In this document: positions 33,630 through 52,220 of the stretch, in pieces
Layout of the letters: every line of letters begins with the position of its first letter
Position numbering within the stretch: the stretch's first letter is position 1
NCBI GenBank assembly: GCA_964446235.1
Contig: CAYUNW010000003.1
Coordinates: 7,182 to 71,181 of the forward strand
DNA length: 64,000 nucleotides
Reading direction: 5' to 3'
Origin: an uncultured Gammaproteobacteria bacterium
Lineage (GTDB): Bacteria > Patescibacteriota > Microgenomatia > 2-02-FULL-39-11
Notes under the pieces: generated by a model
Database searches by the model: none
The model's input: only the letters and a program-made list of their open reading frames with translations
What the model was told of the DNA's origin: nothing
Made by a program: the position numbers and the translations under genes

Positions 33630-33722
33630 AGATATCTTAATCTAATTTGAGCGTATTATATTATACTGACTGATTATAAGCAGAAGTAGGCAATAGTATG
33701 CACGATTCGAGGCTGAATTGAT

Positions 33723-34382: not shown

Positions 34383-34392
34383 TTACGTTGAA

Positions 34393-34620
34393 TTATTCTT
34401 TTTCTGGAAATAAGAATTTTTTTAAGTGGTGCCTCAGCCACTCTTTTATATCCTTATGAAAAACTGAATCAACCAAAATAGTCAATGATATTAAAGCTAT
34501 TACAAAAACTACAAAAAGAGATGTTCCGTTTGCGATTGCTTTATCGGCGAAGAGAAAAATACTTATAGACCAAAATATAAGAATGATTATGAGTAATAGA
34601 AGTCCGGACGATAGTTTCAT
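34393..34620 (-). CDS. Small two-TM protein
   Basis: 75 aa with two hydrophobic helices. Confidence 0.35.
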   Translation of the reverse strand: MKLSSGLLLLIIILIFWSISIFLFADKAIANGTSLFVVFVIALISLTILVDSVFHKDIKEWLRHHLKKFLFPEKE

Positions 34621-34649
34621 AAAGAAAGGGACAGCCCTCCTCTCGCTAT

Positions 34650-34734
34650 CAGCCGGTCAGCTTCAAGGTCATCGAGGAAGAGCTGCCCCTTCCGTTGACC
34701 TTGAAGCCACATAAAACGTGCAGCTGACCGGCTG
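34650..34734. other. GC-rich nested inverted-repeat element (candidate structured RNA or DNA site)
   Basis: Three nested stems: CAGCCGGTCAGC/GCTGACCGGCTG, TTCAAGGTCA/TGACCTTGAA and GGAAG/CTTCC, with a 17-nt asymmetric bulge containing CAC..GTG. It sits between divergent genes. Confidence 0.6.
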
Positions 34735-34820
34735 TGTACTTGGATTATACACCAGAAATAACATCGGGAGCATAATATTAGTCTCAAAGCAGTATAATAA
34801 GAGCGAAATTTAGCATTATT

Positions 34821-37800: not shown

Positions 37801-37976
37801 CGGATAATGAGGTCGATGAGATATTTAAGAATAGACCTCAAGATAGTAATAAAGATCAAATAAAAACGAATGTTCGCTTTTGGAGTTTTGTCAATGCTGA
37901 GGTTGAAATTGTAAAACCCTCTTTGGTATTTAAGATAGCGATGCAAACAGATGAGATGGTGGCTACAAAGAGTTAA
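34821..37976 (+). CDS. 1051-aa orphan protein, N-terminal multi-TM region plus large helical soluble region
   Basis: Long uninterrupted ORF. TM helices lie within roughly residues 70-215. No P-loop or nuclease motif was seen. Confidence 0.6.
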   Translation: MLNLKTPISVLQLLEFLQEKSSVFLRQFRYQAKKKISPQDFLSGRVQGGKFPKVIRRDRISVLPQSLSDRLFLFIFSLLFIFLTDILIKQWFSTNLKIYLDGIGSLGNLGAAAWQVLATVISVGLATIGIILQAISQEKNEYKRKLLLHHYFTVQQLDFKILYSFFVLILAGLVLLFKEKMFLYPFLSEHIFVVFALIVIFVYIFARLIIKSFDYLFPENQSKYFDYSLQNRLLYLIQESARSLILIDVLQLQLNSLEMGIRYLYDEQDKKKLNMAVIETSQKGSIEDIDLALLKSLSKLLGKKYIKEEKGKSPVKAELYIEYGRQEQRIKQPLAIVHKDNYSDKIVHLFKQAIILSTLLPPKIEYDLQEYLDWIWDQVREDLKNEKVGVIKDNLRNLYDFFENSLTIFGSYKKEYKIEDGASIDNWDFLNKLRRQYFVILDSAYGNKSAFEPLFSLNYFPFALMQRAIYQNNKTQFTQSSELIVWVYKYLFKFNHPRQNDLRENFFLTNLNFAQFYLLGGREDFKENFNKRKFYLWVYLRTQINIIRRALEFGDNRTVTEILSIIEKLIKETSYWQEQIPYIDLKENVLTPQEEFRSNWYAMILGVQAWVFQQYETGGIDRDKFNILASVSLWSDIFSLTNTFSVAIGQDLEHIMSWDWWSFEKRSYLNDGGSFGGFENEICKWYVIQAIKLLSKVQESEIPTQKRLLKDKDTYFKLLISPNGTIYAFLELLKKDGDKYLFLFNDLDKNSLNKNIEKLKNYLKLTLEDNEVSKKNALISASIENSKINKFKQSFISGYEKNSKIRKIAKTKKIVTLALKQTGKPFFGIHVLLDKEPFTSLSIMDYDTIAEHYGQQMADVEDYLIIKEIFNSKNPTTKLSYNASNVKLKLDAYLSTIDKNQIKSTYILILGSATLRHELHRDPEYKWSGGKSNRITFDEYKGIKIYWTNIGKENGVVVVDMKNAFKVVQKKPNIEKGEMISKDKHIAFLIAQLTDNEVDEIFKNRPQDSNKDQIKTNVRFWSFVNAEVEIVKPSLVFKIAMQTDEMVATKS

Positions 37977-38018
37977 TTTCAATGCTATTAGTAGAACTAA
38001 TTCAAAATGAGGATATTT

Positions 38019-38489
38019 TTACAGATCTTTATTGGCAAGCATATCACGAACTTTGATTCCTGCTTTTTTGTATCTCTCCCAACCTACGATTCCCTCATTA
38101 ATTTTACTCAATCGATCGTGTTCTTCTTCGGTAACAAGGTATCCGATTGCTCTCTGTAGGATTTTCTCAAGGTTATCCGGATTATCAAGTATTTCAGAAA
38201 TAAGTTGTTTTCTGGTGTAGACGTGTTCGTGTTGAACCTTACCATCCTTTTCATTTAATACTCCTTCTGATCTATACCTTATCCTATACTTTCCATTCGT
38301 ACTGTTGCCGTGGGCTTCCGTAATCTTCCAGATCATAACGGAAATGACTTCTTTTTTGTGCCGGAGGATTACGTTCTTATTCTTAACGACAGATCGGATA
38401 ACTTCGCTTGCGCTCTGTTTGGTTTTCTCTGTTTCCAGATCTTCGATATACATTTCTTTCAGACCTTTGAGCTTGGATTTATACGGCAT
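38019..38489 (-). CDS. Hypothetical protein coupled to the upstream nuclease gene
   Basis: 156 aa with conserved-looking ..VQHEHVYTRKQL.. and ..LVTEEEHDRL..GWERYKKAGI segments. 3-nt gap to the 38493-39461 gene. Confidence 0.4.
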   Translation of the reverse strand: MPYKSKLKGLKEMYIEDLETEKTKQSASEVIRSVVKNKNVILRHKKEVISVMIWKITEAHGNSTNGKYRIRYRSEGVLNEKDGKVQHEHVYTRKQLISEILDNPDNLEKILQRAIGYLVTEEEHDRLSKINEGIVGWERYKKAGIKVRDMLANKDL

Positions 38490-38492
38490 AGG

Positions 38493-39461
38493 TTATTTCC
38501 CATCTTTAGTATCTCGATAAAGAAACTTGTAAGATTCGACCGACAGCCTAACCGCTTCTGGTATTTGTGATTCAGCATTTAAATAAATGTAGCTGATACC
38601 ATTGGTCCAATGCCCCTTTTTACTGCAATCCTCGATTATTAGGGTGGATTCCAAGTATTTAACCGGGAAGCGGTAATAAATTTTCAATCCCTGTTGCTGG
38701 GGAACGATCTCAACATAATTCACCCATTCTTTCCCTCTGTGCCCGGAATACGCGATGTACTGTTTCGTGTATTTTGTGCGGGTTTCAATATTATTTTTGA
38801 GCAGTTGATTCTCAAACTCCTCAAGAAGTTCCCGGCTATCTGTCCAGCTTGGTTTCGCTACATCATCAAGGGTATATACTTTGACTTCCTTGAGTACATT
38901 TTGCGTGGTTTTGTCTTTCGAGAATTTCCCAATGGGCTCGCTAGTCCTGTATGGTTTTATAGGGTTGTAGAGAATAGTATGATTATCGTACAGTTTTGCT
39001 TCATAAAGATAGATTGGTAGATCCTTGAAGTTGATGGCGTTTTTCTGATAATTGGTGAATTCTGGGGAGACAAAAATTACACGGGATGACTCCCAATCGA
39101 TATCCTTCTTTGTGAAGTTTTTATGAAGCCTTTCGTTCAACTCAAGAACGAAATCTGCTTTGTGGTTAAGCATAGCGGAAAGATACGCAAATCCCTGATC
39201 TATAACACTAAAACTTTTGTCTTTTTTGTATTCGATGATGATAAACGACTTTTGTGCTTCATCGAAAGCGAGGGTATCGATATAGAAGTCCTGTTCTTGT
39301 GCTCGAATACTGAATTCTTGATTGAGTGATCCGCTCACAAATTTTAAACCGAAGATTGTATCGAGATTCTTTTCAGTCAGACTTTGAATGTCGTTTTCAA
39401 GATTAAACTTCTTTTCCGAAATCTCCTTTAACTTGTCATTGCTGATAGAAAAGATAGACAT
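38493..39461 (-). CDS. PD-(D/E)xK nuclease-fold protein (NucS/DUF4268-like)
   Basis: YIDTLAFDEAQKSFIIIEYKKDKSFSVIDQGFAYLSAM gives the D..ExK..Q..Y core. Confidence 0.55.
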   Translation of the reverse strand: MSIFSISNDKLKEISEKKFNLENDIQSLTEKNLDTIFGLKFVSGSLNQEFSIRAQEQDFYIDTLAFDEAQKSFIIIEYKKDKSFSVIDQGFAYLSAMLNHKADFVLELNERLHKNFTKKDIDWESSRVIFVSPEFTNYQKNAINFKDLPIYLYEAKLYDNHTILYNPIKPYRTSEPIGKFSKDKTTQNVLKEVKVYTLDDVAKPSWTDSRELLEEFENQLLKNNIETRTKYTKQYIAYSGHRGKEWVNYVEIVPQQQGLKIYYRFPVKYLESTLIIEDCSKKGHWTNGISYIYLNAESQIPEAVRLSVESYKFLYRDTKDGK

Positions 39462-39599
39462 ATAGGGTGTATTATACCCTTTTCCCTATCAGGAGACTAA
39501 GATGAGTTGAATTATTCAAGAACGTTCAACTTTCGAATAGGTAAAACTTATATAAAGACATACTAAGATTATATAAATAATTGCAATCCTTACATCAAT

Positions 39600-39827
39600 A
39601 TGGTAGAGTATCTTACGATGGAAACAAGACATTTAAGATTCAAAAGACTTGCTTTAAGGCGAACGAATATGATCTTGGAAAAATTGAGAATACTGGGAAA
39701 TCTGGCAAATAAAAGTTCTTACAGCTATTCCGATCAAGAAGTAGATAAGATATTTAAGGCGATCGAAGATCAGCTTAGAACGGTCAAGGCAAGATTTAAG
39801 CCGAGAAAAAGACGATTTAAGTTTTAA
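39600..39827 (+). CDS. Small basic protein
   Basis: 75 aa, Arg/Lys-rich. First gene of the plus-strand operon. Confidence 0.35.
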   Translation: MVEYLTMETRHLRFKRLALRRTNMILEKLRILGNLANKSSYSYSDQEVDKIFKAIEDQLRTVKARFKPRKRRFKF

Positions 39828-39853
39828 AACCTATAATTGATTATTAAATTAAG

Positions 39854-40486
39854 ATGAAAATGAAATTTCCAGAAGAAAACCTACCTCGGTGGCAAAAAAT
39901 ACTCCTTGTGCTTTATGAGTTGTCCGGAGAACATAAAAAACAGTTAAAGTTCGAAGATATTGTAGTTGCGGCATATAAACGATTCCCCGAAACATTTCAC
40001 TTGAGAGGATATAAAGAGTATCCCGATTCCGGGGATTTGATTCATAAGCCACTTTACGATATGCGACCCCGAGGTTTTTTAACAGCCAATCAAAAAATGT
40101 TCTCTTTGACGGAAAAAGGAATACTTGCGGCAAAACAACTCAATAAGGCGATTAAAAGAGGCGGAGAAGCCCATTTCAAACCTTCGAGAGAAATAGGCAA
40201 AGAGATAGAACGTATTCTTTCGACAGATGCTTTCATATTTTTCAAAGAGAAAAAGACGGATAAAATCCTCGACACCGATTTTTTGCAATATCTCGGAGTT
40301 AGCGTGCACACCAGCAAAAACGAATTCCGAAACAGACTGGATACGGTAAAATATGCCGTCGATTCAGCCAAATCATTCTATCCGACACAAACTTGTAAGA
40401 GTTTATCGGAATATCACGGGTTTATGTTGCGACGATTCGATCAGTTAATGAGAGAAATGTCGGAACAAAAGGAAAGAAACGTATGA
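39854..40486 (+). CDS. Hypothetical protein (winged-helix-like N-terminus)
   Basis: 210 aa. Its stop overlaps the next start (ATGA). Confidence 0.4.
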   Translation: MKMKFPEENLPRWQKILLVLYELSGEHKKQLKFEDIVVAAYKRFPETFHLRGYKEYPDSGDLIHKPLYDMRPRGFLTANQKMFSLTEKGILAAKQLNKAIKRGGEAHFKPSREIGKEIERILSTDAFIFFKEKKTDKILDTDFLQYLGVSVHTSKNEFRNRLDTVKYAVDSAKSFYPTQTCKSLSEYHGFMLRRFDQLMREMSEQKERNV

Positions 40487-42312
40487 GTATTCAGACATAC
40501 AAAATCGTTGAAGAGAAAAATGAAATGGACGATCATTTTCTCGATATTATCGGTAACGAGTTTAAATTCGATCACCAGAAAGGAATGGCGGAACTGATCA
40601 AAAACTCGGTTGCCGCTTATATCAGAGAAGAGATGCCTTCTGAAAAACAATTTCTCTTTTTAAGATATACGGACAGTGATAACGGTAATGCTCTTATGGA
40701 ATGTGTCGATTTTGTCGGTATGTCTTCCGATCATATCGTATTGGCATTCAAACGTTGGGGCGACCCTAAGGCGGCTTCTTATGGTTATGGAAAGAGAGTA
40801 CCTGGCGGACACGGTAACGGAGGCAAGTTTTATATGCGCCAAATGTTTAAGGAGTCTTATTTTATAACCTATAAGAACGGAAAACTGAATATATACGGAT
40901 TCAGTCCCAATAGAAAATACGGATTTGCCAATCAATTTAAAGACGTATCGATGCGTCCGATCGAGGCAATAAAATTCGCCGGGCTCTCCTCATTGCCGAT
41001 TCCGAAAGAAGTGGTTGACAAAATTTTGCAGGGGAAAACAGGTTTTACAGTTGTAAGAGGAATAGGACCCTTTCAAATGGTGAACAAAATTCAGGCTTAT
41101 CGTATTTCGGAGAAGTTGCGGAATCATCCTCAGGTCAGAAAACACTTGGAAAGAATAAACACTACGGTTATTCATAACGGAAAGGTAATTTTCGATCGAT
41201 TAGTACCAGATAAATTAGCCCCTAAGCCCGGTTTCGAAGGACCGTATGTATATGAAATACCCGAGGAATTATCTTACACCGAAGGCGGTGAAGTGAATAA
41301 AGTAGTTATGGCGAATAAAAAGTATCCTCGGGGGAAACTGATATTGCATACTTCCGATGAGGCTTTGGAACGAGGTGGAAGATTCGGAGAGTTAAATAGA
41401 ATAGATGTCTTGGGAGAAACAGGTCCCATCGCTTCCTATCATATGTATGAGTTGGGAGTAAATCTTTATCCCCAGTACGTATTTATTCACGGTGACTGCG
41501 AGTGTCTTATTCTCGAAGATCCGGACGACGATTGTGTTAAGAACGACAGATCAAAGTTGATAGCCGAAAATCCAAAAACCAAAGCGCTTTTACAGTGGCT
41601 CGGAGAAAGGGTAAACGAATTGGCGGAAAAAATCCTCGATAAAGAAAGAGAAGAACAGAAAAAAATGGAAAAGGAACAGTCTAAATCCTATAACGATTTG
41701 CTGAATCGATGGAGTGCGAAATTCTTAAATAGAATAAGAGCGGAATTATTGGTCGGACCCGGTATCGGACCGGGAATAGGATTCGGAACAGAAGGATCTT
41801 CAGGCGGATTGGGAGAGGGAAAGGGAGGCGAGAACGGGGATAAAGGTGGAGGAGAAGGAAATAAAGAAGGAGGCGGAAATACGGTAAAAAGACAGTCAAG
41901 ATCTCCTAAAGTATTATTATCAGGTATCGATACGGACCCGTTTAATCCGAGCAACGAACCTTTATTTCTTGATCCCCGGCAAGGAATTATTTATCAGCGA
42001 ATACAAGATGTTCGTGAAGGAATCTATTGGATAAATACCGCAAGTCCTTTGGCAAAGGCGGTGCTGGACAAATTTACGGAAAAATCGCAGCAATGGAGAT
42101 CGTATCTTTTTCAAAGACACGTGGATATTCTGATTAAAGAAGAAATGCGTAATCTATACAAGCGGGATTCCGAACGCTTCAACCCCGATGCCATAGATGC
42201 TGAGATATTCGGCGGTTTTATGCTGAAAATACAAGAAGCAGCCTCAAAAGACCTGGAAAGTTTCCTGCTCGCAGAACAATATGACCCAGAAAGAGAAAAC
42301 AAGAAGATATAA
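40483..42312 (+). CDS. GHKL-type (HATPase_c_3/MORC-like) ATPase with Gly-rich low-complexity segment
   Basis: N-box-like AELIKNSVAA, DFVGMS, and G2-like GGHGNGGKFYMRQMF. Residues about 425-465 read GPGIGPGIGFGTEGSSGGLGEGKGGENGDKGGGEGNKEGGGN. Confidence 0.55.
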   Translation: MSIQTYKIVEEKNEMDDHFLDIIGNEFKFDHQKGMAELIKNSVAAYIREEMPSEKQFLFLRYTDSDNGNALMECVDFVGMSSDHIVLAFKRWGDPKAASYGYGKRVPGGHGNGGKFYMRQMFKESYFITYKNGKLNIYGFSPNRKYGFANQFKDVSMRPIEAIKFAGLSSLPIPKEVVDKILQGKTGFTVVRGIGPFQMVNKIQAYRISEKLRNHPQVRKHLERINTTVIHNGKVIFDRLVPDKLAPKPGFEGPYVYEIPEELSYTEGGEVNKVVMANKKYPRGKLILHTSDEALERGGRFGELNRIDVLGETGPIASYHMYELGVNLYPQYVFIHGDCECLILEDPDDDCVKNDRSKLIAENPKTKALLQWLGERVNELAEKILDKEREEQKKMEKEQSKSYNDLLNRWSAKFLNRIRAELLVGPGIGPGIGFGTEGSSGGLGEGKGGENGDKGGGEGNKEGGGNTVKRQSRSPKVLLSGIDTDPFNPSNEPLFLDPRQGIIYQRIQDVREGIYWINTASPLAKAVLDKFTEKSQQWRSYLFQRHVDILIKEEMRNLYKRDSERFNPDAIDAEIFGGFMLKIQEAASKDLESFLLAEQYDPERENKKI

Positions 42313-43204
42313 GAAGCGGAAAAAGTCGCCGGAAGTGTACGGTTTGAATCTCGCAAGAGATGAAGAAGTAACGGCTTTATACCGAAGCGGTTTAACACTA
42401 CAACAAATAGGAAATAAATACGGAATCACAAGATCACGTATTCAACAAATCGTTTTTAGGACTCTACGCAGAAAGATTGTAAGCGAAATAAGACACCGCC
42501 TTAGAACAAACCCTGATAGAATGCCCATAAAGATCTTGGTTAAAGAGGAAATTAAGAGAATTCGAAACACGAAGCGAGAAAAGTGGTTAAAAACCAAGTT
42601 GATTGAAAAAGCGGAAAAAGGAATCGTCCCCGAAAAATTCACTTCGGAATTGAAGTTTGCTTCCGCGTTGGGTCTTCCGATTGAAATAATACGAGAATTT
42701 GCTCCGGATTTGATTACCGTGATCAAAAATAATAAAACCACGGGATATGGAGGTAGAAAATGGAGTAGACATTATTTACGTTGCAGAATGTGCGGCACAA
42801 TTAGTGTTCCTCATAAAATGTGGGGATGTTGCGAAAACTGTTATTATAAAACTGAAAATTTTAAAGAAATACAAGCTGCTTCGAGGTTAAGGAACCTGCA
42901 TAGATGGCTTCCAAAACAGCGAAAGTATCAATTGGAACATTACGATAAAGTAAACTATGGAGGAAATAGAAAAAAGGTGCTCGATCGAGACGGGTATAAA
43001 TGCATAAAATGTTCGGTTACGGAAGAAGAGAGTATAGAACGATACGACGAGAGACTAAGAGTAGTTCATTTGGGAGCGATTGAAAATAACGAATTGGACA
43101 ATTTGGCAACATTTTGTCGAAATTGTTGGATGAAACAACTGAGGAAAAGAAGGACAATCAAGCAAACCGATACGCAAAATCGTCAATCACCGGCGATTCG
43201 ATAG
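42281..43204 (+). CDS. Sigma-70 region-4-like HTH fused to an HNH endonuclease domain
   Basis: N-terminus LYRSGLTLQQIGNKYGITRSRIQQIV. C-terminus DRDGYKCIKC..LRVVHL..N..DNLATFCRNCW. Confidence 0.6.
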   Translation: MTQKEKTRRYKKRKKSPEVYGLNLARDEEVTALYRSGLTLQQIGNKYGITRSRIQQIVFRTLRRKIVSEIRHRLRTNPDRMPIKILVKEEIKRIRNTKREKWLKTKLIEKAEKGIVPEKFTSELKFASALGLPIEIIREFAPDLITVIKNNKTTGYGGRKWSRHYLRCRMCGTISVPHKMWGCCENCYYKTENFKEIQAASRLRNLHRWLPKQRKYQLEHYDKVNYGGNRKKVLDRDGYKCIKCSVTEEESIERYDERLRVVHLGAIENNELDNLATFCRNCWMKQLRKRRTIKQTDTQNRQSPAIR

Positions 43205-44195
43205 ATTCCGCCTTTATTTGTTTCTTAGACGGCTTCAAAAATCTGATTATTCTTCGTGCAATAGCTTCAACTACCGGAACGGAAACGGTATTGCCGAATT
43301 GTTTGTATGCCTGATTGTCGGAAACGGGGATTTTATAATCTTCCGGAAAGCCTTGTAATCTTGCGCATTCTCTTGGAGTAAGTGTTCTGAGTCCCAAACA
43401 GTTCTTTGCAGATTTATTCATTCCTTCCCTGTAGAAATATTCTCTGATCGGTTCTTTAATCAGATTTCTTTCCCTTCCCATTCGTCCGACTACGAGAGAG
43501 TTCGCAGTTCCGTTCAGATCGACCACTTCGTAACCCCAACCGTGACCCTTCGCTCTATGGTAGGCTTTATGTCGAGCCAAACACTCATAATATCTTTGAG
43601 ATATAAAGTATTTTACGTCTGCTTCTTCCTTTTCCAAAATATCCCCGACCTTTAATTTTTCGCCCGTCGGTTCGGGAAAATCGAAATTCACCTTTTTACT
43701 GAAACCTACAATATAAATGCGTTCTCTATTTTGCGGCAACCCGAAGTCTTTGCTGTTTATAACCTTATAAAATATATGATAACCCAATTTGTTCACCAAA
43801 ATATCTTTAATCACTCCGAATGTTTCTCCTCGATGGTGTCTCTCAAGAAACTTAACATTCTCGAGGAAAAATGCTTTAGGTATCTTATCGGTTAAAATAC
43901 GCTCGATTTGAAAGAACAAATTTCCTCTGGGGTCTTCAAACCCCTTTTTTCCTCCCGCCAAGGAGAAGGGTTGACAGGGAAAGCCAGCAAGCAGGATATC
44001 GAAATCCGGTATTTCGGAAGAAGGAACATCTTTTATATCCCTTTGATCGATATCTCCGAAATTTGTACGGTAGGTTTGACAACAATAGCGATCGATTTCG
44101 TTCGAATATGCGATTTTGAATCCCGCACGTTCGAATCCCAAACGTATCCCTCCTATTCCGGCAAATAAATCGACAGCTTTTAACCTATGGATCAT
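43158..44195 (-). CDS. dcm: DNA (cytosine-5)-methyltransferase
   Basis: DLFAGIGG, GFPCQPFS, ENV, QNRERIY, TPRECARLQGFP. Confidence 0.95.
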   Translation of the reverse strand: MIHRLKAVDLFAGIGGIRLGFERAGFKIAYSNEIDRYCCQTYRTNFGDIDQRDIKDVPSSEIPDFDILLAGFPCQPFSLAGGKKGFEDPRGNLFFQIERILTDKIPKAFFLENVKFLERHHRGETFGVIKDILVNKLGYHIFYKVINSKDFGLPQNRERIYIVGFSKKVNFDFPEPTGEKLKVGDILEKEEADVKYFISQRYYECLARHKAYHRAKGHGWGYEVVDLNGTANSLVVGRMGRERNLIKEPIREYFYREGMNKSAKNCLGLRTLTPRECARLQGFPEDYKIPVSDNQAYKQFGNTVSVPVVEAIARRIIRFLKPSKKQIKAESIESPVIDDFAYRFA

Positions 44196-44230
44196 AAAAC
44201 TATAATATACCTTAAAAATAACCAGTTCAA

Positions 44231-44665
44231 TTGACCAATTTGATTATGAGCGATATATTTTCCTCTCAAAAAAGAAGCGAAATAATGTCAAAGGTTAAGT
44301 CCAGAAATACTAATATTGAACTTCTCCTCAGACGGGCATTGTTTAGAAAAGGATACCGATTCAGATTGCATTATCGTATCTCCGGTACTCCGGACATTGT
44401 ATTGCCTTCCAAAAAGATTGCTATATTTTGTGATGGTGATTTTTGGCATGGTAAACATTTTAAACGAGAAAACATAAATTACAAAAAATTCTGGAAAAAT
44501 AAAATAAAAGCCAACATAATACGAGATAAAAAAGTGAATACCAAATTGCGTAAAGATGGGTGGAAAGTGATAAGATTTTGGAAGTCGGAAATTCTCAAGA
44601 ATCTCGATCGTTGTGTGGATACAATCGAACAAACTCTTGAGAAATTAAATAATAGCAAAGCTTGA
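44231..44665 (+). CDS. vsr: Very-short-patch repair endonuclease
   Basis: RSEIMSKVKSRNT.IE, PDIVLP..KIAIFCDGDFWHG. Confidence 0.9.
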   Translation: MTNLIMSDIFSSQKRSEIMSKVKSRNTNIELLLRRALFRKGYRFRLHYRISGTPDIVLPSKKIAIFCDGDFWHGKHFKRENINYKKFWKNKIKANIIRDKKVNTKLRKDGWKVIRFWKSEILKNLDRCVDTIEQTLEKLNNSKA

Positions 44666-44733
44666 TTAAACACGTTTATGACCTTCATTTCTTGGAATAG
44701 TATTGTTCTCAATGGTTAAAAAGAAATGTCTGT

Positions 44734-44825
44734 AAAAGTTTCGGATGTTATCCATCTCCCGGAGCTAACAAATTGGGAGCAATACAACGCTCCTTTTTTT
44801 TGTAACCCAATAGGACGATAAAATT
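44734..44825 (+). repeat. Intergenic repeat family, copy A
   Basis: aaaagtttcggatgttatcc..gggagcaatacaacgctccTTTTTTTTgt..taggacgataaaatt. Confidence 0.75.
44776..44801 (+). terminator. Intrinsic terminator within repeat copy A
   Basis: GGAGC-aatacaac-GCTCC followed by T8, downstream of vsr. Confidence 0.6.
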
Positions 44826-44999
44826 AGTTTAGTATTTTCTCACAGTTTGTTTCTTCTTCTATTATTTACCAGTGAACTTAATCACAGGAGATTTATACAG
44901 CAACATGGATGATTTCATACGAGGAAAAAAAGTACTAGTGAGGTATAATATGGTGGTTGCGATGAAGCTCGCATAATCCCAAATTATAATCTGGGTGAT

Positions 45000-45031
45000 A
45001 GCTTCTACTTTTTACGGTAGAAGCTTTTTTT
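45000..45031 (+). terminator. Strong hairpin plus T-run ending 8 nt before the dynamin-like start codon
   Basis: AGCTTCTAC-tttttacg-GTAGAAGCT followed by a T-run. Confidence 0.6.
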
Positions 45032-45038
45032 CTATCAT

Positions 45039-46772
45039 ATGCAGAACAATAAATTAGAAAATACCCTATCTTCACTATCTGATTTGCCTATTGTCAGGGA
45101 AAATTCACTCCTTTCTAAAAGAATAGACAGTTTGAAGAAAAGACTGGAAAAGAACGAATTCCAGCTTGTGATACTTGGCCAGTTTAAAAGAGGGAAAAGC
45201 ACCCTGATAAATTCCCTACTTGGCGAACAGATATTACCAACGTCAATTGTACCTTTGACTTCAATTATTACCGTCCTTAAATATAATAAAACCCAAAATA
45301 TTACTGTTTTATTTATTGATAACCATACGAAAAAAATAACCTTCTCCCAATTACCTGATTATGTGACAGAAGGAAAAAATCCAAACAATATTAAACAAGT
45401 TGAGCAGGTTATTATTGAATACCCATCAGAATACCTTAAAAATGGCATCCAGATAATTGATACACCAGGAGTAGGTTCTGTTTACCAGCACAATACGGAT
45501 GTTGCCTATGACTTTGTCCCAAAAGCTGACGCTGGAATTTTTCTCTTTACCGCTGACCCCCCAATCAGTGAATCTGAACTGAAATTTCTGACAGCCATAA
45601 AAGATTATCTGGGTAAGATTATATTTGTCCAAAACAAAATAGACCAGATTTCAGAAAAGGATAGGGAGGAATCACTGGAATTTACCAAAAAAATCATAAA
45701 AGAAACTGTAGGAGCAAAAGAGTTGGTATTTTACCAAATATCGGCAAAATTAGGCTTTGAAGGAAAAAAGGGCAAAGACAGTAAGAAACTAATGGAAAGC
45801 AAATTGCCAATGTTTGAGGAAGGACTAAACCATATTTTCACCAGCCAAAAAGCACACATAATCACAAAATCAATAACAAAAAAGTTGCTTTTAGCAGTAA
45901 AAGAAATAAATCTGATGCTTGCCATTGAGGAGCAGTCTGTCTCCATGCCAATTGCCATCTTGAAAGAGAAAATTACCGCTTTTAATAAAGAACTTACGGT
46001 AATAAAACAGGAAAAGGAAGATAATGATTATATTCTTCAGGGCAAGCTGGAAAAACTGGTCAATCAGACTTTGATTGATGACATTGAAATCCTGAAAGAG
46101 AAAGAACTTCCAGCAATACTGTGTGCATTTGAGCAGTTTTTCAAATCCCACCAGGATAAAAGCGGAATAGAACTATCCGCACTCCTTGATAAATTCCTGG
46201 AAAAATCAATCAAGAAAATATTTGGAAGCTGGAGGATAGAAGAAGAAAGGAAACTTCAGAAATCCCTTGAATCCATTTTGGACAGGTTTTCTTCCCAGAC
46301 CAACAATTTTATAAGTAGAGCAATTGAATTATCCGCAAGTCTATTTAACTTAAAAATTGGAGAACTAAAAACAGAGACCAGCTTTAAAGAAGAGTACGAA
46401 TTCAAATTTTCCTTTGACGAATATCAGGTTGACTTGGATTTTTATACTCCTGTCGTATCAAGACTGCCTAAGTTTCTTTCCCATAAACTTCTTTATAAAA
46501 ACATGAGGGATAAGGTTATCCAGGAATTTGATAAACACTCTGGACGAAGCAGGTATGATTTCCATCAGCGTGTTTTACAGAGTATAAATGAATTTAGGGA
46601 TAACCTTGACGAAAGACTGAATGAAATTATTGAAGGAATCAATATTGCTATGAAAAAGGGGTTGTTACAAAGGGAGAAAGCAGAAAGTACAGAGAAAGAA
46701 GTAGCTAAGTCCTTACGAGCCCAGAAAAGCATTCTTTCCCAGATTTCAACTCACTTATATTTATTTGGATAA
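45039..46772 (+). CDS. Bacterial dynamin-like GTPase
   Basis: G1 GQFKRGKST, G3 DTPGVGS, G4 QNKID, followed by a long helical stalk. Confidence 0.75.
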   Translation: MQNNKLENTLSSLSDLPIVRENSLLSKRIDSLKKRLEKNEFQLVILGQFKRGKSTLINSLLGEQILPTSIVPLTSIITVLKYNKTQNITVLFIDNHTKKITFSQLPDYVTEGKNPNNIKQVEQVIIEYPSEYLKNGIQIIDTPGVGSVYQHNTDVAYDFVPKADAGIFLFTADPPISESELKFLTAIKDYLGKIIFVQNKIDQISEKDREESLEFTKKIIKETVGAKELVFYQISAKLGFEGKKGKDSKKLMESKLPMFEEGLNHIFTSQKAHIITKSITKKLLLAVKEINLMLAIEEQSVSMPIAILKEKITAFNKELTVIKQEKEDNDYILQGKLEKLVNQTLIDDIEILKEKELPAILCAFEQFFKSHQDKSGIELSALLDKFLEKSIKKIFGSWRIEEERKLQKSLESILDRFSSQTNNFISRAIELSASLFNLKIGELKTETSFKEEYEFKFSFDEYQVDLDFYTPVVSRLPKFLSHKLLYKNMRDKVIQEFDKHSGRSRYDFHQRVLQSINEFRDNLDERLNEIIEGINIAMKKGLLQREKAESTEKEVAKSLRAQKSILSQISTHLYLFG

Positions 46773-46848
46773 AAAAATATAGCAAACATGAACTATTTCG
46801 TATCAAAATTTAAATATAATCTTTGAATATGAATAGAATTAATTGAAT

Positions 46849-46922
46849 AAAAGTAGTTCCTGATTTCGTACATCAGGTGGAATACAAGATTTAAAGGGAA
46901 TGTTACAACGCTCCTTTTTGTT
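46849..46922 (+). repeat. Intergenic repeat family, copy C
   Basis: aaaagtagttcc-CCTGATttcgtacATCAGG-..gggaatgttacaacgctccTTTTTgtt. Confidence 0.7.
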
Positions 46923-46944
46923 ATATTTTTGATATAATAAGTTA

Positions 46945-47496
46945 ATGAAACCGGAATTTGAAGATGCTTATTTGCCACAAGAACAATTATTGAGAAAAAT
47001 ATTGGGAGATTACAAATCTTTTACCCTTGATTTACTTCAAAGATTAGCGGATGCGGGTATTGGTGTTCAAGATTATCCAATTGACCATGTGTGTTTCAAG
47101 GTTTCCAGTATAAAGAATTACCACATTATGTTGGTTTTATTGACGCCGCATATTCAGGGAATCTGTGAGACAGTTCATCACGGAAGGCCTTTTGCAAAAC
47201 TACTATTATCAAACCCGCTTCAGGTTGATAAATATACAATTCCTGTAATAGAAATTCCAGCTCCTAAAGAAGGGGAGGAAACAAAAGATGGACTTGATCA
47301 TATTGAGATGGTTGTGGGTGATAATTACCAAAGTTTACATCAAGCTCATAATAGTTTATAGTTCGGAATTGTTGACAGTGGGCCTTTCAATAAACTGTAT
47401 TTCATTACTTTTGATAACGGGAAAACTGTCCGATTTCATGAAATGTCAATTACTGACGTGATGCGGAATGAAGGTAATAGTTTCACTGCGATTTAG
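46945..47496 (+). pseudogene. YecM-like (VOC-fold) gene interrupted by an in-frame TAG at 47359-47361
   Basis: DHVCFKV, HHGRPFAKLLL and VIEIPAPKEGEE..GLDHIEMVV lie before the stop. The same frame continues ..FDNGKTVRFHEMSITDVM, matching the YecM C-terminus. Confidence 0.65.
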
Positions 47497-47507
47497 ACAG
47501 TAATCCC

Positions 47508-47612
47508 TTAAGTAGTTCCTTATTTCATCCACTGGATCGGACTAGGTAATAAGCAAGACTAGCGGGAATCAAATTAAACGCGGGAGAAATATTTACGGGA
47601 TAATTAGTTTAT
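47508..47612 (+). repeat. Intergenic repeat family, copy D
   Basis: ttaagtagttcc..ATCCAcTGGAT..cgcgggag..gggataattagtttatt. Confidence 0.6.
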
Positions 47613-47643
47613 TACTATACTACTCTTGACTAATCGTCTCAAA

Positions 47644-48714
47644 ATGATACGATTATTGTATATGAATGAGACGATAACTCCTAGACAGGCACGAATATTG
47701 AATATTATAATTTCATCAAGCGGGATTACAAGAGATGCAATTCTATCCGATATTGAAAGAATTTATGCAATATCCAGACCAACTTTGATACGTGATTTAA
47801 ATGTATTACTAAGTCAAAAAAGGATAAAAAGTGTTGGGAAGGGACCGGTAACCAAATACGTTTCGATTGAAGAAAATCCGTTGTTTAAAAAATTTGATTT
47901 AAATGCATATTTTTCAACGGATCCGGATCAAAGAAGTGCTAAAAGGGTATTTGATTTTTCAGTTTTCAACAGACTAAAAAACCTTTTTAATCAGGAAGAA
48001 ACTGCAAGTCTTGAAAAAATTAAAAAAAGTTTCTCTATGTCCGCATCGCGACTTGATCCAGGAATTTTGAAGCGGGAGCTTGAAAGGTTTGTGATCGAGC
48101 TTTCATGGAAATCATCCAAAATCGAAGGGAATACCTATACGCTTCTGGAGACAGAATCGCTTATAAAGGAAAGGATTGAAGCAAAAGGTAAAAGAAAAGA
48201 TGAGGCTATTATGATTCTAAATCATAAAGCCGTGTTTGACGTCATTTTAAGGAATAAAGATGATTTTATTACAATGAATTTATCAAAAATAAATCAGTTG
48301 CATAATGTTCTGATAAAAGATTTGAATATTAGTGCAGGTTTAAGAAATCAGGCTGTCGGAATAACCGGCACGATATATATTCCGCTTGAAAATCATCATC
48401 AGTTAAGAGAGGCAATGGAAAAAATGACTGATTTGGTAAATAAAACAAAAAATCCATTGGAAAAAGCAATGATTATCCACATAATGATTCCTTATATCCA
48501 ACCGTTTGTTGACGGAAATAAACGGACAGGAAGAATGCTTACCAACGCAGTTCTTCTTGCTCATGATATGTTTCCGCTGTCATACAGAAGCATGGATGTG
48601 GACGAATTTAAAAAAGCATTGATTCTTTTCTATGAACAACAAAGTATATTGGCGGTAAAGAAAATATTTATTGAACAGTTCCGTTTTGCAAACGACACAT
48701 ATTTCAAGTCATAA
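47644..48714 (+). CDS. Fic-family protein with N-terminal HTH, non-canonical active-site motif
   Basis: The Fic core reads IQPFVDGNKRTGR, whereas the canonical form is HPFxDGNGRxxR. Confidence 0.7.
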   Translation: MIRLLYMNETITPRQARILNIIISSSGITRDAILSDIERIYAISRPTLIRDLNVLLSQKRIKSVGKGPVTKYVSIEENPLFKKFDLNAYFSTDPDQRSAKRVFDFSVFNRLKNLFNQEETASLEKIKKSFSMSASRLDPGILKRELERFVIELSWKSSKIEGNTYTLLETESLIKERIEAKGKRKDEAIMILNHKAVFDVILRNKDDFITMNLSKINQLHNVLIKDLNISAGLRNQAVGITGTIYIPLENHHQLREAMEKMTDLVNKTKNPLEKAMIIHIMIPYIQPFVDGNKRTGRMLTNAVLLAHDMFPLSYRSMDVDEFKKALILFYEQQSILAVKKIFIEQFRFANDTYFKS

Positions 48715-48770
48715 TAACTATAAAAATTTATGCTTTTTTCTCAACGGTAACTATTTTGATGATTATTATT

Positions 48771-48861
48771 CCTAACAGTTCGGATAATATCCACTAGGGG
48801 GAGCCAAATAATTAGGAGCATTACGACGGTCTTTTTTTGTTCCCTAGTAGGACGATAGAAC
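48771..48861 (+). repeat. Intergenic repeat family, copy B
   Basis: cctaacagttcggataatatccactagggggagcc..aggagcattacgacggtcTTTTTTTgt..taggacgatagaac. Its 5' part resembles the tRNA-Asn 3' end. Confidence 0.75.
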
Positions 48862-48899
48862 TTTTTTCATTGACTTGTATCTAATTATCTATATAATAT

Positions 48900-49223
48900 A
48901 TGAACATGGGTTCATATAATTGCTGTACTTCCAATAAAAAAGAAGAGAGAGATGTTTCTCAATTATCACCACTACTCAAACTAGTGGCAGAAGAAAGCAG
49001 ATTGAAGTTGCTTTGTGTATTAAGACAAGGAAAGCACTGTGTCTGCGAGTTGATTGAACATGGAAATATGTCCCAAAGCCTTATATCTCATCATCTTAAA
49101 GATTTGAAAGATACAGGACTAATAAAGGACGAAAAAAGAGGACAATGGGTTTATTACTCTTTAACAGCCATGGGTAAAAGAACAACGGATTTATTATTCA
49201 GGATAAACAGAAAGGAGTCTTAA
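48900..49223 (+). CDS. ArsR/SmtB-family transcriptional regulator
   Basis: CVCEL..MSQSLISHHLKDLKDTGLI...RGQWVYYSL. Confidence 0.85.
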   Translation: MNMGSYNCCTSNKKEERDVSQLSPLLKLVAEESRLKLLCVLRQGKHCVCELIEHGNMSQSLISHHLKDLKDTGLIKDEKRGQWVYYSLTAMGKRTTDLLFRINRKES

Positions 49224-49225
49224 TT

Positions 49226-49483
49226 ATGAAAATACAAGTATTAGGTTCAGGTTGCACTACATGTAAAAATCTTTATGAAATAACCCAAAAAGCTGTAAAG
49301 GAAATGAGCAATAGTGCAGAAGTGGAATATATTACAGGCGATGAAGGAATGAGAAAAATTATTGAACTGGGAGCAATGAACAGCCCTGTTTTGTTGGTAA
49401 ACGGAAAAATTGCCATGACTGGATTTACTTCTGATATAGAGAAAATAAAGGAAAAGATAAAAGTAGTTTTTGAAGAAAAATAA
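49226..49483 (+). CDS. Small thioredoxin-fold protein (Thioredoxin_3 type)
   Basis: MKIQVLGSGCTTCKNL.. CxxC motif, 85 aa. Confidence 0.75.
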   Translation: MKIQVLGSGCTTCKNLYEITQKAVKEMSNSAEVEYITGDEGMRKIIELGAMNSPVLLVNGKIAMTGFTSDIEKIKEKIKVVFEEK

Positions 49484-49486
49484 CTT

Positions 49487-50467
49487 ATGGATATATTTTC
49501 CCCGATTCAATTATTTGCTGATACTGTTACTTATAAGTGGTTGGGGATTGTCCCTAATACCTATATTGGCGATACTGTCAATTTTTTCATTTACGATATT
49601 ATAAAAATTGGGATACTTCTTATAGTTATCAACTACATTATGGCATTCATTAGGTACTACTTTCCTATGGAAAAGGTCAGAGATATTCTGACCAAAAGAA
49701 GGTGGTACGGATTGGATTATTTACTTGCAGCACTTCTTGGTGTTATCACGCCTTTCTGTTCCTGCTCCTCAATTCCGCTTTTCATTGGTTTTCTATCAGC
49801 AGGTATACCTCTTGGAGTGACTTTTGCCTTTCTTATCAGTTCACCTCTGATAAACGAATCATCCCTTTATATTTTTCCTGCTATATTTGGATTAAGAATT
49901 ACGGTTCTTTATAATCTTGTTGGGCTTGTAATAAGTGTAATTGGAGGAATGATTATCCAAAGGATGAATATGGAGAAATTTATCCAACCTGAATTCCTGA
50001 AATTCAAATCAAGAAAGCAAGTAGAGGCAAAGTATGAAGACCAGAAAGTACCATTCAATGACCTAGTAAAACACTGGTCAAGCGAGGCAATGGAAATAAC
50101 CAAAAAGATATTTCCCTATGTTGTTTTGGGTGTAGGGTTTGGGGCAATAATACATGGTTTTGTCCCTGAAGAATTGATTACTAAGTACTTATCAGTAAGA
50201 AGCTGGTATACCATTCCGATTGCAGTTATTCTTGGTATTCCGCTTTATGCTAACTCTGTTAGCATTATTCCTGTTATTGAAGCCTTAGTTGGAAAAGGTA
50301 TTCCAATAGGTACTGCGCTTTCTTTTATGACGGCAACGGTAACATTATCGCTTCCTGAAGCATTAATGCTTAAAAAGGTTATGAAGATTCCTCTACTTGC
50401 TACATTCTTCATAATTACGACATTAGGGATTATACTTATCGGATACTTGTTGAATATAGTGGGTTAA
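49487..50467 (+). CDS. ArsP_1-type permease
   Basis: Polytopic protein with the ITPFCSCSSIPLF motif. ArsR - Trx_3 - permease is a recurrent operon arrangement. Confidence 0.7.
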   Translation: MDIFSPIQLFADTVTYKWLGIVPNTYIGDTVNFFIYDIIKIGILLIVINYIMAFIRYYFPMEKVRDILTKRRWYGLDYLLAALLGVITPFCSCSSIPLFIGFLSAGIPLGVTFAFLISSPLINESSLYIFPAIFGLRITVLYNLVGLVISVIGGMIIQRMNMEKFIQPEFLKFKSRKQVEAKYEDQKVPFNDLVKHWSSEAMEITKKIFPYVVLGVGFGAIIHGFVPEELITKYLSVRSWYTIPIAVILGIPLYANSVSIIPVIEALVGKGIPIGTALSFMTATVTLSLPEALMLKKVMKIPLLATFFIITTLGIILIGYLLNIVG

Positions 50468-50483
50468 GTAAATATTGCGGTTG

Positions 50484-50537
50484 AAAAGTAGTAAAGCAGT
50501 TGCTTATGTAGTCTACCACTTTGGAGCACGATCAATG
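50484..50537 (+). repeat. Intergenic repeat family, partial copy E
   Basis: aaaagtagt..AGCAgtTGCT..ggagcacgatcaatg. Confidence 0.4.
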
Positions 50538-50999
50538 TGTATAGGTTGTTAGTTTCTGTAGCCTATCGATATAGGCATATTTCCAGAAGAGAAGGGTGGG
50601 TTTTCCGATTAACATTTTGGCAAATATTTGCAAAAGATTATTCTTGATTTGAACCTCGTTTCGGTAGATAATTCTTGTTCCGGAGGAAACTTCCTCCAAT
50701 ATAAAACTTTCATTTTCAGTTGCCAAAACAGAAGTATTAACTGATTTAAATCCTTTATTGGGTAATAATTGTGTGCTCATCAAAACATGAAACGGAATAC
50801 CAAACGTTTTTGATACGGCATCAATGGTTAAATTATTACCTTGTTTATTGATAATCTTTAATGATTTTGCCACTAATGGAAAATACTTCGGAGCATTTTC
50901 AAAATCGGTAATTATTTCATAAATTTTTTGTTGTGGAGCATTAATGATCCATGACCCTTTCAAAATAATCGATCTCATGTAATTATTATACGTTAACAA
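50532..50999 (-). CDS. SRPBCC (START/polyketide-cyclase-like) protein
   Basis: ..I.APQQKIYEIITDFENAPKYFP.. pattern. The start may be 50978. Confidence 0.55.
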   Translation of the reverse strand: MLTYNNYMRSIILKGSWIINAPQQKIYEIITDFENAPKYFPLVAKSLKIINKQGNNLTIDAVSKTFGIPFHVLMSTQLLPNKGFKSVNTSVLATENESFILEEVSSGTRIIYRNEVQIKNNLLQIFAKMLIGKPTLLFWKYAYIDRLQKLTTYTH

Positions 51000-51050
51000 G
51001 TTAAATAACTGTTAAGTAATATAGGTAAAAGAGGTTTTTTTCTTCTTTGA

Positions 51051-51100
51051 GTCGGAGTGTACGATTTTTAAAAAGAAGCGTTACAGCGCTCCCTTTTTCG
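51051..51100 (+). repeat. Intergenic repeat family, partial copy F
   Basis: gaagcgttacagcgctcccTTTTTcg. Confidence 0.45.
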
Positions 51101-51115
51101 TGATAAAATATCAGT

Positions 51116-51385
51116 ATGACAAAGTTGGAGGAGTTAGAATTGGAGATTCAGGAAATTAAAGGTAGAAACAAAAGAGTTGAATCTGATAAAGCTTGGGAGA
51201 CAAGTGGGACAAGAAGAGTGTTATTAGCAATTTTTACTTATTTGGCAATCAGTCTTTATATGTATACTATCTCTTTACCCAGTCCTTGGGTGAATGCTAT
51301 TGTGCCAAGCATAGGTTTTCTTCTTTCTACATTGACGCTTCCAACGTTTAAAAGACTCTGGCAAAGGTATATTTATAAGAAATAG
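51116..51385 (+). CDS. Small two-TM protein with N-terminal coiled coil
   Basis: 89 aa, ..RVESDKAWETSGTRR.. followed by two helices. Confidence 0.45.
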   Translation: MTKLEELELEIQEIKGRNKRVESDKAWETSGTRRVLLAIFTYLAISLYMYTISLPSPWVNAIVPSIGFLLSTLTLPTFKRLWQRYIYKK

Positions 51386-51520
51386 CCAATAAGAAGATCT
51401 CAACTTCTAATCATTTTTATATCATAAAGATAAATTCCCATTCTATTTTTAGTAGTTTGACAACACTCTTAAATTGTTATATATTTATAACATATTGTTA
51501 TAAATATTTAACTAACTTAT

Positions 51521-51949
51521 ATGATTGCAAATACTGCTTGGTTCAACAGAAGAAAATATACCGGTTGGGGGTTAACGCCAAAAACATGGCAGGGTGTAGT
51601 CTATATCTTAATAATCGCCGGGACTACCATTTTCATCCAAAGCATTTCTTTGGATGAAACCTTAAAAATGGTTTTAACTGCAGTTTGGGTAGTTTTTGTT
51701 TTGATAGATTTACTTCAAGTTATGGCTTTGATAAAACTAGACGAAAGAGAAAAGAAAATCGAGGCTATTGCCGAAAGAAATGCGTCCTGGACTATGGTTA
51801 CTTCGATTGCTTTGATACTCCTTTATGTTTCAACAATCGGAAAAGAGCTTCAAGGTCAGGAACTTATACCTTTGCTTATTTTACCTATGATTGCAGGAGT
51901 GGTAGTCAAAGGAATTTCAAATATTTTATTGGAAAAAAAAGGAATTTAA
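51521..51949 (+). CDS. Four-TM membrane protein (DUF2178-like partner of the downstream HTH gene)
   Basis: 142 aa. Adjacent to a 63-aa XRE regulator, which is a common pairing. Confidence 0.45.
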   Translation: MIANTAWFNRRKYTGWGLTPKTWQGVVYILIIAGTTIFIQSISLDETLKMVLTAVWVVFVLIDLLQVMALIKLDEREKKIEAIAERNASWTMVTSIALILLYVSTIGKELQGQELIPLLILPMIAGVVVKGISNILLEKKGI

Positions 51950-51957
51950 TTATATAA

Positions 51958-52149
51958 ATGAAAACCAGAATAAAAGAATTCAGGGCAAAATATAACTTAA
52001 CCCAGGAAGCGTTGGCTGAAAAAGTTAATGTCAGACGGGAAACGATTGTTTTTTTGGAAAAAGGTAAATACAATCCGTCTTTGAAACTTGCTTACGATAT
52101 TTCCAAAGTCCTGAAAACCACAATAGAAGAATTATTTTTGTTCGGTTAG
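51958..52149 (+). CDS. XRE-family HTH transcriptional regulator
   Basis: [34 protein letters not shown]. Confidence 0.85.
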
Positions 52150-52170
52150 AAAAATTACTGAGATTTCTAT

Positions 52171-52220
52171 ACGGATTCGATAATATCAAAACCTCTTATC
52201 TCCAGCTGATTGAAATGTTA
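52171..52220 (+). repeat. Intergenic repeat family, degenerate copy G
   Basis: acggattcgataatatc..tatctccagctgattgaaatg aligns with the 5' halves of copies A and B. Confidence 0.35.

Follow-up and report, generated by a model that had tools for sequence, protein, structure and literature searches.

How does a patescibacterial genome come to carry a row of unrelated accessory genes, set apart one by one by similar but degenerate intergenic repeats? The question is raised by a 64,000-nucleotide stretch (the window; ~34 % G+C) of contig CAYUNW010000003.1 in assembly GCA_964446235.1 (positions 7,182 to 71,181, forward strand; Patescibacteriota, Microgenomatia). The mobile DNA of the Candidate Phyla Radiation (CPR) is poorly charted, and the small CPR genomes are usually regarded as static. 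The repeats are probably scars of attachment sites, left where large serine recombinases (LSRs) of one family inserted integrative elements at the 3' end of a tRNA-Asn gene.

Repeat units A, B, C and F are real and D is a plausible fifth; all share a plan in which a core resembling a tRNA 3' end (AGTTCS .. ATCCAY .. GGAGC) is followed, after a gap of 9-12 nt (~16 nt in F), by a box consisting of a terminator-like hairpin and a T-run. Unit A (44734..44830), identified by alignment with B over ~97 nt, by profiles and by the box pattern, is composed of the core AGTTTCGG..ATCCAT (44737-44755), the GGAGC at 44761-44765, the box hairpin with T-run (44775-44802) and a distal box reaching up to 44830. 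In unit B (48771..48867), the core AGTTCGG..ATCCACTAGGGGGAGC, with ATCCAC to GGAGC at 48789-48804, precedes the box and T-run at 48814-48837 and the distal box TAGGACGATAGAA. Unit C (46849..46925) runs from AGTTCC (46855-46860) to GGAAT (46879-46883) and on to a box with T-run at 46896-46919, while unit F (51040..51105) combines a degenerate core ending in GAGTCGGAGT with a well-kept box and T-run (51074-51097); the box sequence GGGAGCAATACAACGCTCC plus T-run is common to C and F. The weak unit D (47508..47612) is made up of AGTAGTTCC (47511-47519), ATCCAC (47527-47532), GGACT (47539-47543), a box in decay and, distally, GATAATTAGTTTA, so that the distal box which an initial annotation of this DNA had described for A, B and D is found in all three. 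The same annotation had counted at least seven copies. Its E (50484-50537) and G (52171-52220) drop out, as neither gave a significant match by any profile or MAFFT alignment (the best match for E has an E value of 2.9, even with a profile that includes the window copies). All units lie on the + strand and are confined to 6.4 kb, from 44.7 to 51.1 kb.

This clustering is borne out by pattern and profile searches. The degenerate box pattern RGRARYRWTACRRCGSTCYYTTTT matches the window four times (A, C, B and F) as compared to 0.00 matches expected in shuffled sequence, which upholds the conserved box with T-run as first described, and an nhmmer profile of A, B, C and F detected no extra copy in the remaining ~57 kb, i.e., no generic spread across the window. 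In order to avoid circularity, independent profiles built solely from units of other metagenomes were also run on the window: with the box profile, C, A, F and B come up at E values of 1e-6 to 3e-5, and with the core profile B (1e-4) and A (2e-3), followed by C, the true tRNA-Asn 3' end and D, each of which is non-significant alone (0.85-1.4; D 1.4). The sequence ATCCAYNNNNNGGAGC occurs at three sites in the 64 kb, namely the tRNA-Asn 3' end, A and B, all on the + strand, versus 0.01 expected, and B differs from the tRNA-Asn 3' end at 2 of 16 positions, in agreement with the resemblance noticed at the outset. Aligned with the tRNA, AGTTCS of the units corresponds to the T loop (GGTTCGA), ATCCAY to the 3' strand of the T stem and GGAGC to the acceptor end.

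With its GGGAGC-N8-GCTCC stem-loop followed by T8, flagged as terminator-like and conserved as a 9-pair stem in RNAalifold, the box corresponds to the definition of an intrinsic terminator and probably acts as one. It is also the only structure that RNAalifold retains in an alignment of eight units, the cores showing no consensus pairing; single units fold no better than shuffled sequences, with the exception of A. A conserved RNA or DNA hairpin within the core was consequently rejected, and the hairpin earlier described as varying in sequence between copies is not confirmed as a positionally conserved element with compensating changes, given that the hairpins of individual copies lie at differing places relative to the conserved motifs.

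The key to the origin of the cores lies 15 kb upstream of the units on the same strand, where the tRNA-Asn (GTT) gene (29364..29436, +; ARAGORN; Rfam tRNA, 63.6 bits) is overlapped by the gene of a 569-aa LSR on the opposite strand (29403..31112, −; Pfam Resolvase 3.9e-27, with Recombinase at 0.00044 and Zn_ribbon_recom at 0.0006 slightly under their curated cut-offs). Its stop codon is located inside the tRNA gene, just 3' of the anticodon loop, and its final 11 codons plus stop lie in antisense opposite the variable loop, T arm and acceptor of the tRNA; the C-terminus is ..LVLPRVDSNHEP, and the integrated tail thus reads ..PRVDSNHEP before the stop. The recombinase is of the serine and not of the tyrosine type; no tyrosine recombinase was found by Pfam among 40 open reading frames (ORFs) scanned between 22.5 and 63 kb. 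As judged from its sequence, the tRNA-Asn gene is the integration target, with its T arm and acceptor 3' strand as the B arm of the left junction, attL, which reads ATCCAC GCGGGGG/AGCACTA ATGGAT (the slash marks the presumed crossover). An integrative island of ~15.3 kb would accordingly begin at the tRNA 3' end and reach as far as the GGAGC of unit A (29437..44765), its borders being placed by attL, unit A and analogous islands in two related loci (L089 and L091, see below). Apart from the LSR, it encodes a helix-turn-helix/terminase-small-like protein, DUF5659, Dcm and Vsr (Pfam), with Dcm and Vsr at the distal end; vsr (44231-44665) is the last island gene and unit A starts 69 nt beyond it. 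The genes as far as vsr look like an integrative element.

The same architecture is found family-wide. The LSR has thousands of homologues, those with a named source stemming from Microgenomates-type Patescibacteria; next to tRNA-Asn, homologous recombinases occur in four further genomes, and tandem islands are present in two of the four. In L088 (66 % identity) and L090 (61 %), the LSR gene lies near rpoD-dnaG, as in the window, and its end abuts that of exon 2 of tRNA-Asn. L089 and L092 have a shorter LSR of a second type (495-496 aa) whose gene ends inside tRNA-Asn, and two islands stand in tandem with the first-type LSR one island farther in: tandem accretion at the tRNA is seen here directly. 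The relic between the two islands, which retains the ..CTACTAGGGGGAGC end and lacks the T-loop-like motif, lies inside the tail of the outer recombinase gene, whose frame runs through ..CGTCTACTAGGGGGAGCA, so that the first-type LSR acquires a longer, different tail via this core-like relic. At their distal ends, first-type islands are closed by cores with a spacing widened by 5 nt (L089, 2578-2615; L091, 3769-3802). Separately, L091 also has an LSR-proximal core of the same wide, attP-type spacing (11675-11712, −), which overlaps the stop codon of a CBU_0592-like gene.

Another relative, L096, is a contig of 9,588 nt that encodes an LSR along with the usual set of island genes, has no tRNA and is considered circular because of a 23-nt non-repetitive terminal overlap. 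It carries AAGTTCCGGCGTTATCCATTAAGCGGAGCA joined to AAGATGGATTTTG, that is, a core fused to the LSR tail (E value of 4e-7 with the combined core profile, window copies included), and on sequence grounds this is the attP of the element. A core that occurs beside the LSR tail on a circle devoid of tRNA must belong to the element itself, as its own P arm; the cores would hence mostly be tRNA-mimicking P arms of the elements and not displaced pieces of the host tRNA. In L096, GG/AG forms the centre of the inverted repeat ATCCAT (14 nt) ATGGAT, a layout shared by attL of the window; conserved 'QNP' codons in the LSR tail encode the ATGGATT half.

Side by side with these junctions stands the observation that the LSR reading frame spans the attachment site and that the tail is longer and different in reconstructed or observed attP sites and in tandem arrays. 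Because the frame crosses attP, integration is predicted to change the C-terminus of the recombinase. Among the 120 LSR homologues listed (P0001-P0120), many have ..LLPR(V/E/L)DSN(H/L/Q).. near the C-terminus, a motif that is the T loop GGTTCGAATCC read antisense and flanked by host-specific, perfectly paired T stems, whereas others read into core-like sequence.

The geometry of the sites discriminates between both kinds of arm. The T-loop-like motif and GGAGC lie 18 nt apart in six real tRNA-Asn genes as well as in three units of other metagenomes (L083c1, L083c5 and L086) and 22-25 nt (mode 23) in 18 units, namely A-D and 14 elsewhere including the L096 attP. In the A118/LI integrase system, attB has the motif for the zinc-ribbon domain 5 bp nearer to its centre than attP has (Rutherford et al. 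2013, PMC3783163). The ~5-bp wider spacing of the cores matches this rule, which would make them P arms and the tRNA the B arm. Within this explanation, a crossover at GG/AG of GGAGC is moderately favoured over one in the T loop: it would leave the tRNA intact, the reconstructed attB would comprise tRNA-Asn, 9 nt and the box hairpin with T-run (a sensible native locus), and the reconstructed attP would yield the LSR tail LREMDNIRNFY.., which is like the tails of P0016, P0061 and P0100. A T-loop crossover was rejected for unit A: this unit borders an intact island, yet its CTCCCGGAGC cannot pair with TCCCCTG, the 5' acceptor strand. In L093, a crossover farther 5' may apply to at least one other element.

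Units of the same kind were also sought in other metagenomes. Scanning a whole metagenome collection with the box pattern returned four loci only, three of which are true relatives (~30-34 % G+C), and viral contigs contained neither a match to the unit patterns nor a close LSR relative (distant ones, with ≤47 % identity, added little). The clearest relative, L083 (4.9 kb), is a second array; its seven units, all on the same strand, set apart DHFR, a GIY-YIG-like gene, a small membrane protein, three opposite-strand genes and a flavin-reductase-like gene; the orientation of the units is fixed where that of the genes flips, which favours recombination sites over gene-attached terminators. Clear tRNA likeness (GGTTCGAATCC..GGGGAGCA) is seen in L083c1, L083c5 and L086, the best non-tRNA matches of a tRNA-Asn 3'-half profile (E values of 0.02-0.19), and the box follows 12 nt downstream in L083c1 and L086. 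Furthermore, CAGTTCGGATAATATCC in L084 is identical to part of B.

L093 links several of these features: downstream of tRNA-Asn, the tRNA 3' end recurs as an exact 19-nt repeat, and additional units enclose a homologue (74 %) of the Fic gene of the window. This gene lies in the array, 4.3 kb downstream of the tRNA, and has the same promoter region as in the window (TTGACWAATCGTCTCAAAATGATACGAT). The second recognisable core past Fic (15186) is B-like (GATTCGGATAGTATCCCACAAAGGGAGCA) and is separated from Fic by four further genes and one more core-like stretch (~14370). Fic and the B-like core together give a hint of element identity. Another Fic homologue (92 %) sits among different neighbours.

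Taken together, the recombinase stands at one end, attP lies beside the recombinase with its arm at the distal ends, and the ~5-bp shift is present, as for LSR attachment sites elsewhere; in addition, repeats of the target 3' region lie downstream only, in the orientation of the target, and bound accessory blocks (window; L089, L092; L093), as in tandem accretion. Relic att sites from serial integration at tRNA-Asn, as first proposed, are thus supported by the LSR ending in the tRNA, by A closing its island, and by tandem islands and attP in relatives. Each unit would represent an attR-type junction in which the far-end P arm of the element to its left is joined to the sequence that then lay downstream of the tRNA. 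The P arm would consist of AGTTCS, ~11 nt, ATCCAY and 5 nt, mimicking T arm plus acceptor strand with the distal motif ~5 bp farther out, and GGAGC would be the crossover region, to the right of which this lineage would have the GGGAGC-N8-GCTCC hairpin and T-run; the box, at first simply a conserved part of the repeat, would thereby become a terminator-like hairpin right of the crossover. A newcomer would insert between the tRNA and the previous arrival, older units being pushed outward, and unit A would be the attR closing the LSR island. Since a box lies right of GGAGC in A-D and F, each block without recombinase would have brought its own box as right arm at the tRNA-proximal end; small elements with such a 'core/box' site could have entered one after another, each insertion restoring 'tRNA/box' for the next arrival. 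Alternatively, the recombinase-less blocks may be mini-elements mobilised in trans, what is left of larger islands after reduction, or the outcome of composite excisions. Decay is pointed to by the YecM pseudogene (see below) as well as by the degenerate units D, F and possibly E.

Several findings weigh against this explanation. Known LSRs recombine only attP with attB (PMC3783163), and a core/box site would act as an attR and not integrate alone, so that the origin of box-bearing cassettes without recombinase is not accounted for under the LSR rules given there. The ~5-bp shift is displayed by left arms only, the right halves (boxes) having no attP-versus-attB difference in spacing, and with the independent core profile neither C nor D is significant individually. 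The LSR-proximal site of L091 adjoins housekeeping genes (L21, L27, ParB, FtsW) and no tRNA-Asn, which the simple model does not predict. For L093, profile support for the units is modest (four matches with E values ≤1 versus 1.1 in shuffles, one of the four on the opposite strand), and the exact 19-nt repeat begins in the T loop and thus suits a crossover farther 5' for that element. Moreover, neither an empty site nor an excised circle nor a cassette-lacking strain was found for this genome, all matching contigs being alike.

Among the alternatives, an active, integron-like cassette platform, in which core/box would be a live site, the LSR would take up, cut out and rearrange cassettes in trans and tRNA-Asn would serve as attI, appears unlikely. 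In its favour, the units are short (0.5-2 kb), mostly single-gene and without recombinase; site orientation is constant while gene orientation varies (window; L083); composite core-plus-box units recur in separate metagenomes, core variants recur as well (CAGTTCGGATAATATCC in both B and L084, a B-like core in L093), and the neighbours of the Fic gene differ from array to array. No single cassette was observed to move, however, and no cargo turned up in two genomes between matching left and right sites; internal cassettes would be flanked by two attR-like sites, a pair that known LSRs do not recombine (PMC3783163), and apparent signs of decay are seen in the YecM pseudogene and in the degenerate D, F and E. 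Carried further, the same idea would turn tRNA-Asn of Microgenomates-type Patescibacteria into the landing pad of a serine-recombinase cassette-capture system, which we regard as a similarly speculative prospect: single-gene cassettes with a composite site (tRNA-mimicking P arm plus terminator box) would restore the target after each insertion, and arrays would grow and perhaps reshuffle in an integron-like fashion with unrelated chemistry and a recombinase altering its own C-terminal tail. The cassette-recombination site that the initial annotation had listed as an alternative is therefore kept as a minority reading only.

Still less probable is that the units are true, displaced 3' ends of the host tRNA, generated by crossover in the T or anticodon loop with each element supplying a new end. 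Such an interpretation was adopted for the Dehalococcoides ssrA islands (PMC3146451) and would fit the close match of B to the tRNA 3' end, the 19-nt repeat of L093 starting in the T loop and the LSR stop codon 5' of the T arm. It is at odds with the unpairable acceptor strand of A, with the +5 spacing and the recurrent CTAG that the cores share and that are found in no real tRNA-Asn, with the tRNA-less circular element that has such a core, and with the host-specific T stems perfectly paired beside related LSRs. The hairpin and T-run of the box, flagged as terminator-like, and the position of most units 3' of a same-strand gene might finally suggest generic intrinsic terminators, a dispersed repeat akin to repetitive extragenic palindromes (REP) or miniature inverted-repeat transposable elements (MITE), or a structured regulatory RNA of 3' untranslated regions. 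This is hardly credible in view of the lack of any copy in the other ~57 kb of the window, the four loci in the whole metagenome collection (three of them relatives) with none in viral contigs, and the fixed orientation where neighbouring genes flip (F; L083). Rfam gave no match to the units at gathering or E≤10 thresholds, no structure beyond the box is conserved, and terminal inverted repeats were not seen in the units; the MITE-like origin considered initially thus falls with copies that are clustered on one strand and have no such repeats. A tmRNA origin of the units was likewise discarded, as the tmRNA of the window ends in ..GGCGGACATCTCCACCA, unlike the units. Attachment-site scars of LSR elements remain the favoured explanation.

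Outward from the target, the order is tRNA-Asn, LSR island, A, dynamin-like gene, C, YecM remnant, D, Fic gene, B, ArsR operon, (SRPBCC gene) and F, so that the repeats indeed separate unrelated accessory genes (Pfam), as the initial annotation had stated. The cargo comprises a dynamin-like GTPase (45039..46772, +; Dynamin_N 1.1e-29), a YecM-like gene (46945..47461, +), a Fic-family protein (47662..48714, +; Fic 4e-16), an operon of ArsR regulator, thioredoxin-like protein and ArsP-type permease (48900..50467, +), and, on the opposite strand, an SRPBCC/polyketide-cyclase-like protein (50532..50999, −). The YecM-like gene is interrupted, with overlapping ORFs at 46945-47361 and 47288-47461 that cover positions 3-121 of the 180 profile positions, and is probably a pseudogene. 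Directly 5' of the dynamin-like gene lies a sub-threshold match to the fluoride riboswitch RF01734 (44949-45014, +; 26.5 bits versus a gathering score of 34; E value of 4e-4), for which this would be an unusual target; it overlaps a strong terminator-like hairpin at 45000-45025 (10-bp stem plus T-run).

Upstream of the array, dnaG, rpoD, an EamA gene and an MGMT-like gene precede tRNA-Asn on the + strand. The window has a match in a 69.6-kb metagenome contig (JGI 3300037501). Its RpoD has its nearest counterparts in Patescibacteria MAGs, with 71 % identity to that of a 'Patescibacteria group bacterium' and 62 % to that of Candidatus Roizmanbacteria; an RpoD synteny search in 185k species genomes returned two close Patescibacteria matches, neither with tRNA-Asn or the repeat nearby, and every contig with the RpoD or dynamin-like gene of this genome has an identical layout. 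Farther upstream (10935-23000), a cluster of RNA genes contains the tmRNA (10935-11335) and six tRNA genes (Ser x4, Arg x2).

A few observations concern the target gene and the units in relatives. The tRNA-Asn gene is interrupted in the anticodon loop, after CTGT, by a group I intron in L088 (11672-11851, −; Rfam Intron_gpI, 59 bits), L090 (~11720-11925, −; exon-intron layout readable) and L093 (~5385-5683, +), while that of the window has no intron; ARAGORN misses the interrupted genes. In L093, an insert of ~560 bp (5722-6305) lies directly 3' of tRNA-Asn; it contains a small GIY-YIG-like ORF and tandem copies of GAGTTTACCCTGAGTTTACCGAAGG (spanning an assembly gap) and ends in the exact 19-nt repeat. 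Small GIY-YIG genes also adjoin units in L083 and tRNA-Asn in L089. A conserved module of ~70 nt (CCCGCAAGCTATTGTCCTGAGT..TCGAAGG..TTTACATTGTTTAAGAATTGAGGCTAA), absent from the window, precedes the tRNA-spaced units (L083 about 4262-4335, 1640-1775 and 140-225, −; L086 about 2068-2125, −). That it could be the decayed 3' part of the tRNA-Asn group I intron looked suggestive in a forced MAFFT alignment and was withdrawn after nhmmer and Rfam gave no match; it weakly resembles the tandem repeat CCCTGAGTTTACCGAAGG ending the small L093 insert.

Tandem accretion at tRNA or tmRNA genes as a way to build a variable region is already known from other bacteria. Together with four related loci, the present one points to a single hot spot, tRNA-Asn in the vicinity of rpoD-dnaG, used by a single recombinase family, and the variable region so built holds genes for defence, stress and metal handling. 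The attP, attL and attR sequences furthermore represent concrete substrates for a new tRNA-targeting serine integrase, a type of enzyme sought for genome engineering, and the arrays may serve as a marker for accessory-gene regions in fragmented metagenome assemblies.

How does the locus compare with known systems? It resembles integron arrays in being a polar series of short, mostly promoterless accessory-gene units with sites all facing one way. Unlike in integrons, IntI, attI and Pc were not found (40 ORFs scanned, 22.5-63 kb), and unlike attC, the units contain no palindrome and no GTTRRRY/RYYYAAC pair, the terminator box alone being folded; membership in the integrons therefore fails on recombinase and site structure, just as membership in REP or MITE families fails on distribution within the window. 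Tandem, site-specific accretion in which integrase-less units keep their att sites is also known from integrative conjugative (ICE), integrative mobilizable (IME) and cis-mobilizable (CIME) elements of Streptococcus. The ICE and IME are conjugative or mobilizable and tens of kilobases in size, whereas the units described here are far smaller, and no transfer genes were seen in those of the window. Serial tRNA integration displacing older elements, scattered partial tRNAs with degraded elements and a streamlined host genome recall the tycheposons of Prochlorococcus, of which 910 of 937 use tyrosine recombinases and whose partial tRNAs are genuine fragments of tRNA genes (Hackl et al., bioRxiv 10.1101/2020.12.28.424599); the present locus has an LSR instead, and its repeats are for the most part tRNA mimics carried by the elements. 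The sites themselves are like those of the A118/LI integrase (PMC3783163), i.e., quasi-palindromic with a short central crossover and a distal motif 5 bp farther out in attP than in attB, with the differences that the present family is known from sequence alone, that the shift is found in left arms only and that the recombinase frame spans attP.

The closest known case is that of the Dehalococcoides ssrA islands, which lie in tandem downstream of tmRNA, have a 20-bp repeat of the tmRNA 3' end at their borders and carry a ~540-aa serine recombinase gene on the reverse strand at attL; immediately upstream of the repeat there is a conserved motif without match to the RNA gene, and cis-mobilization was proposed for islands lacking an integrase (McMurdie et al. 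2011, PMC3146451). Tandem islands, repeats of an RNA-gene 3' end and a reverse-strand serine recombinase beside attL are common to both systems. In contrast to the ssrA islands, a second small recombinase of the DsiA/CcrA kind was not seen beside the LSR, the target is tRNA-Asn instead of tmRNA, the host belongs to the Patescibacteria, the units mostly hold a single gene, and the repeat is far more diverged from its target and equipped with a terminator box.

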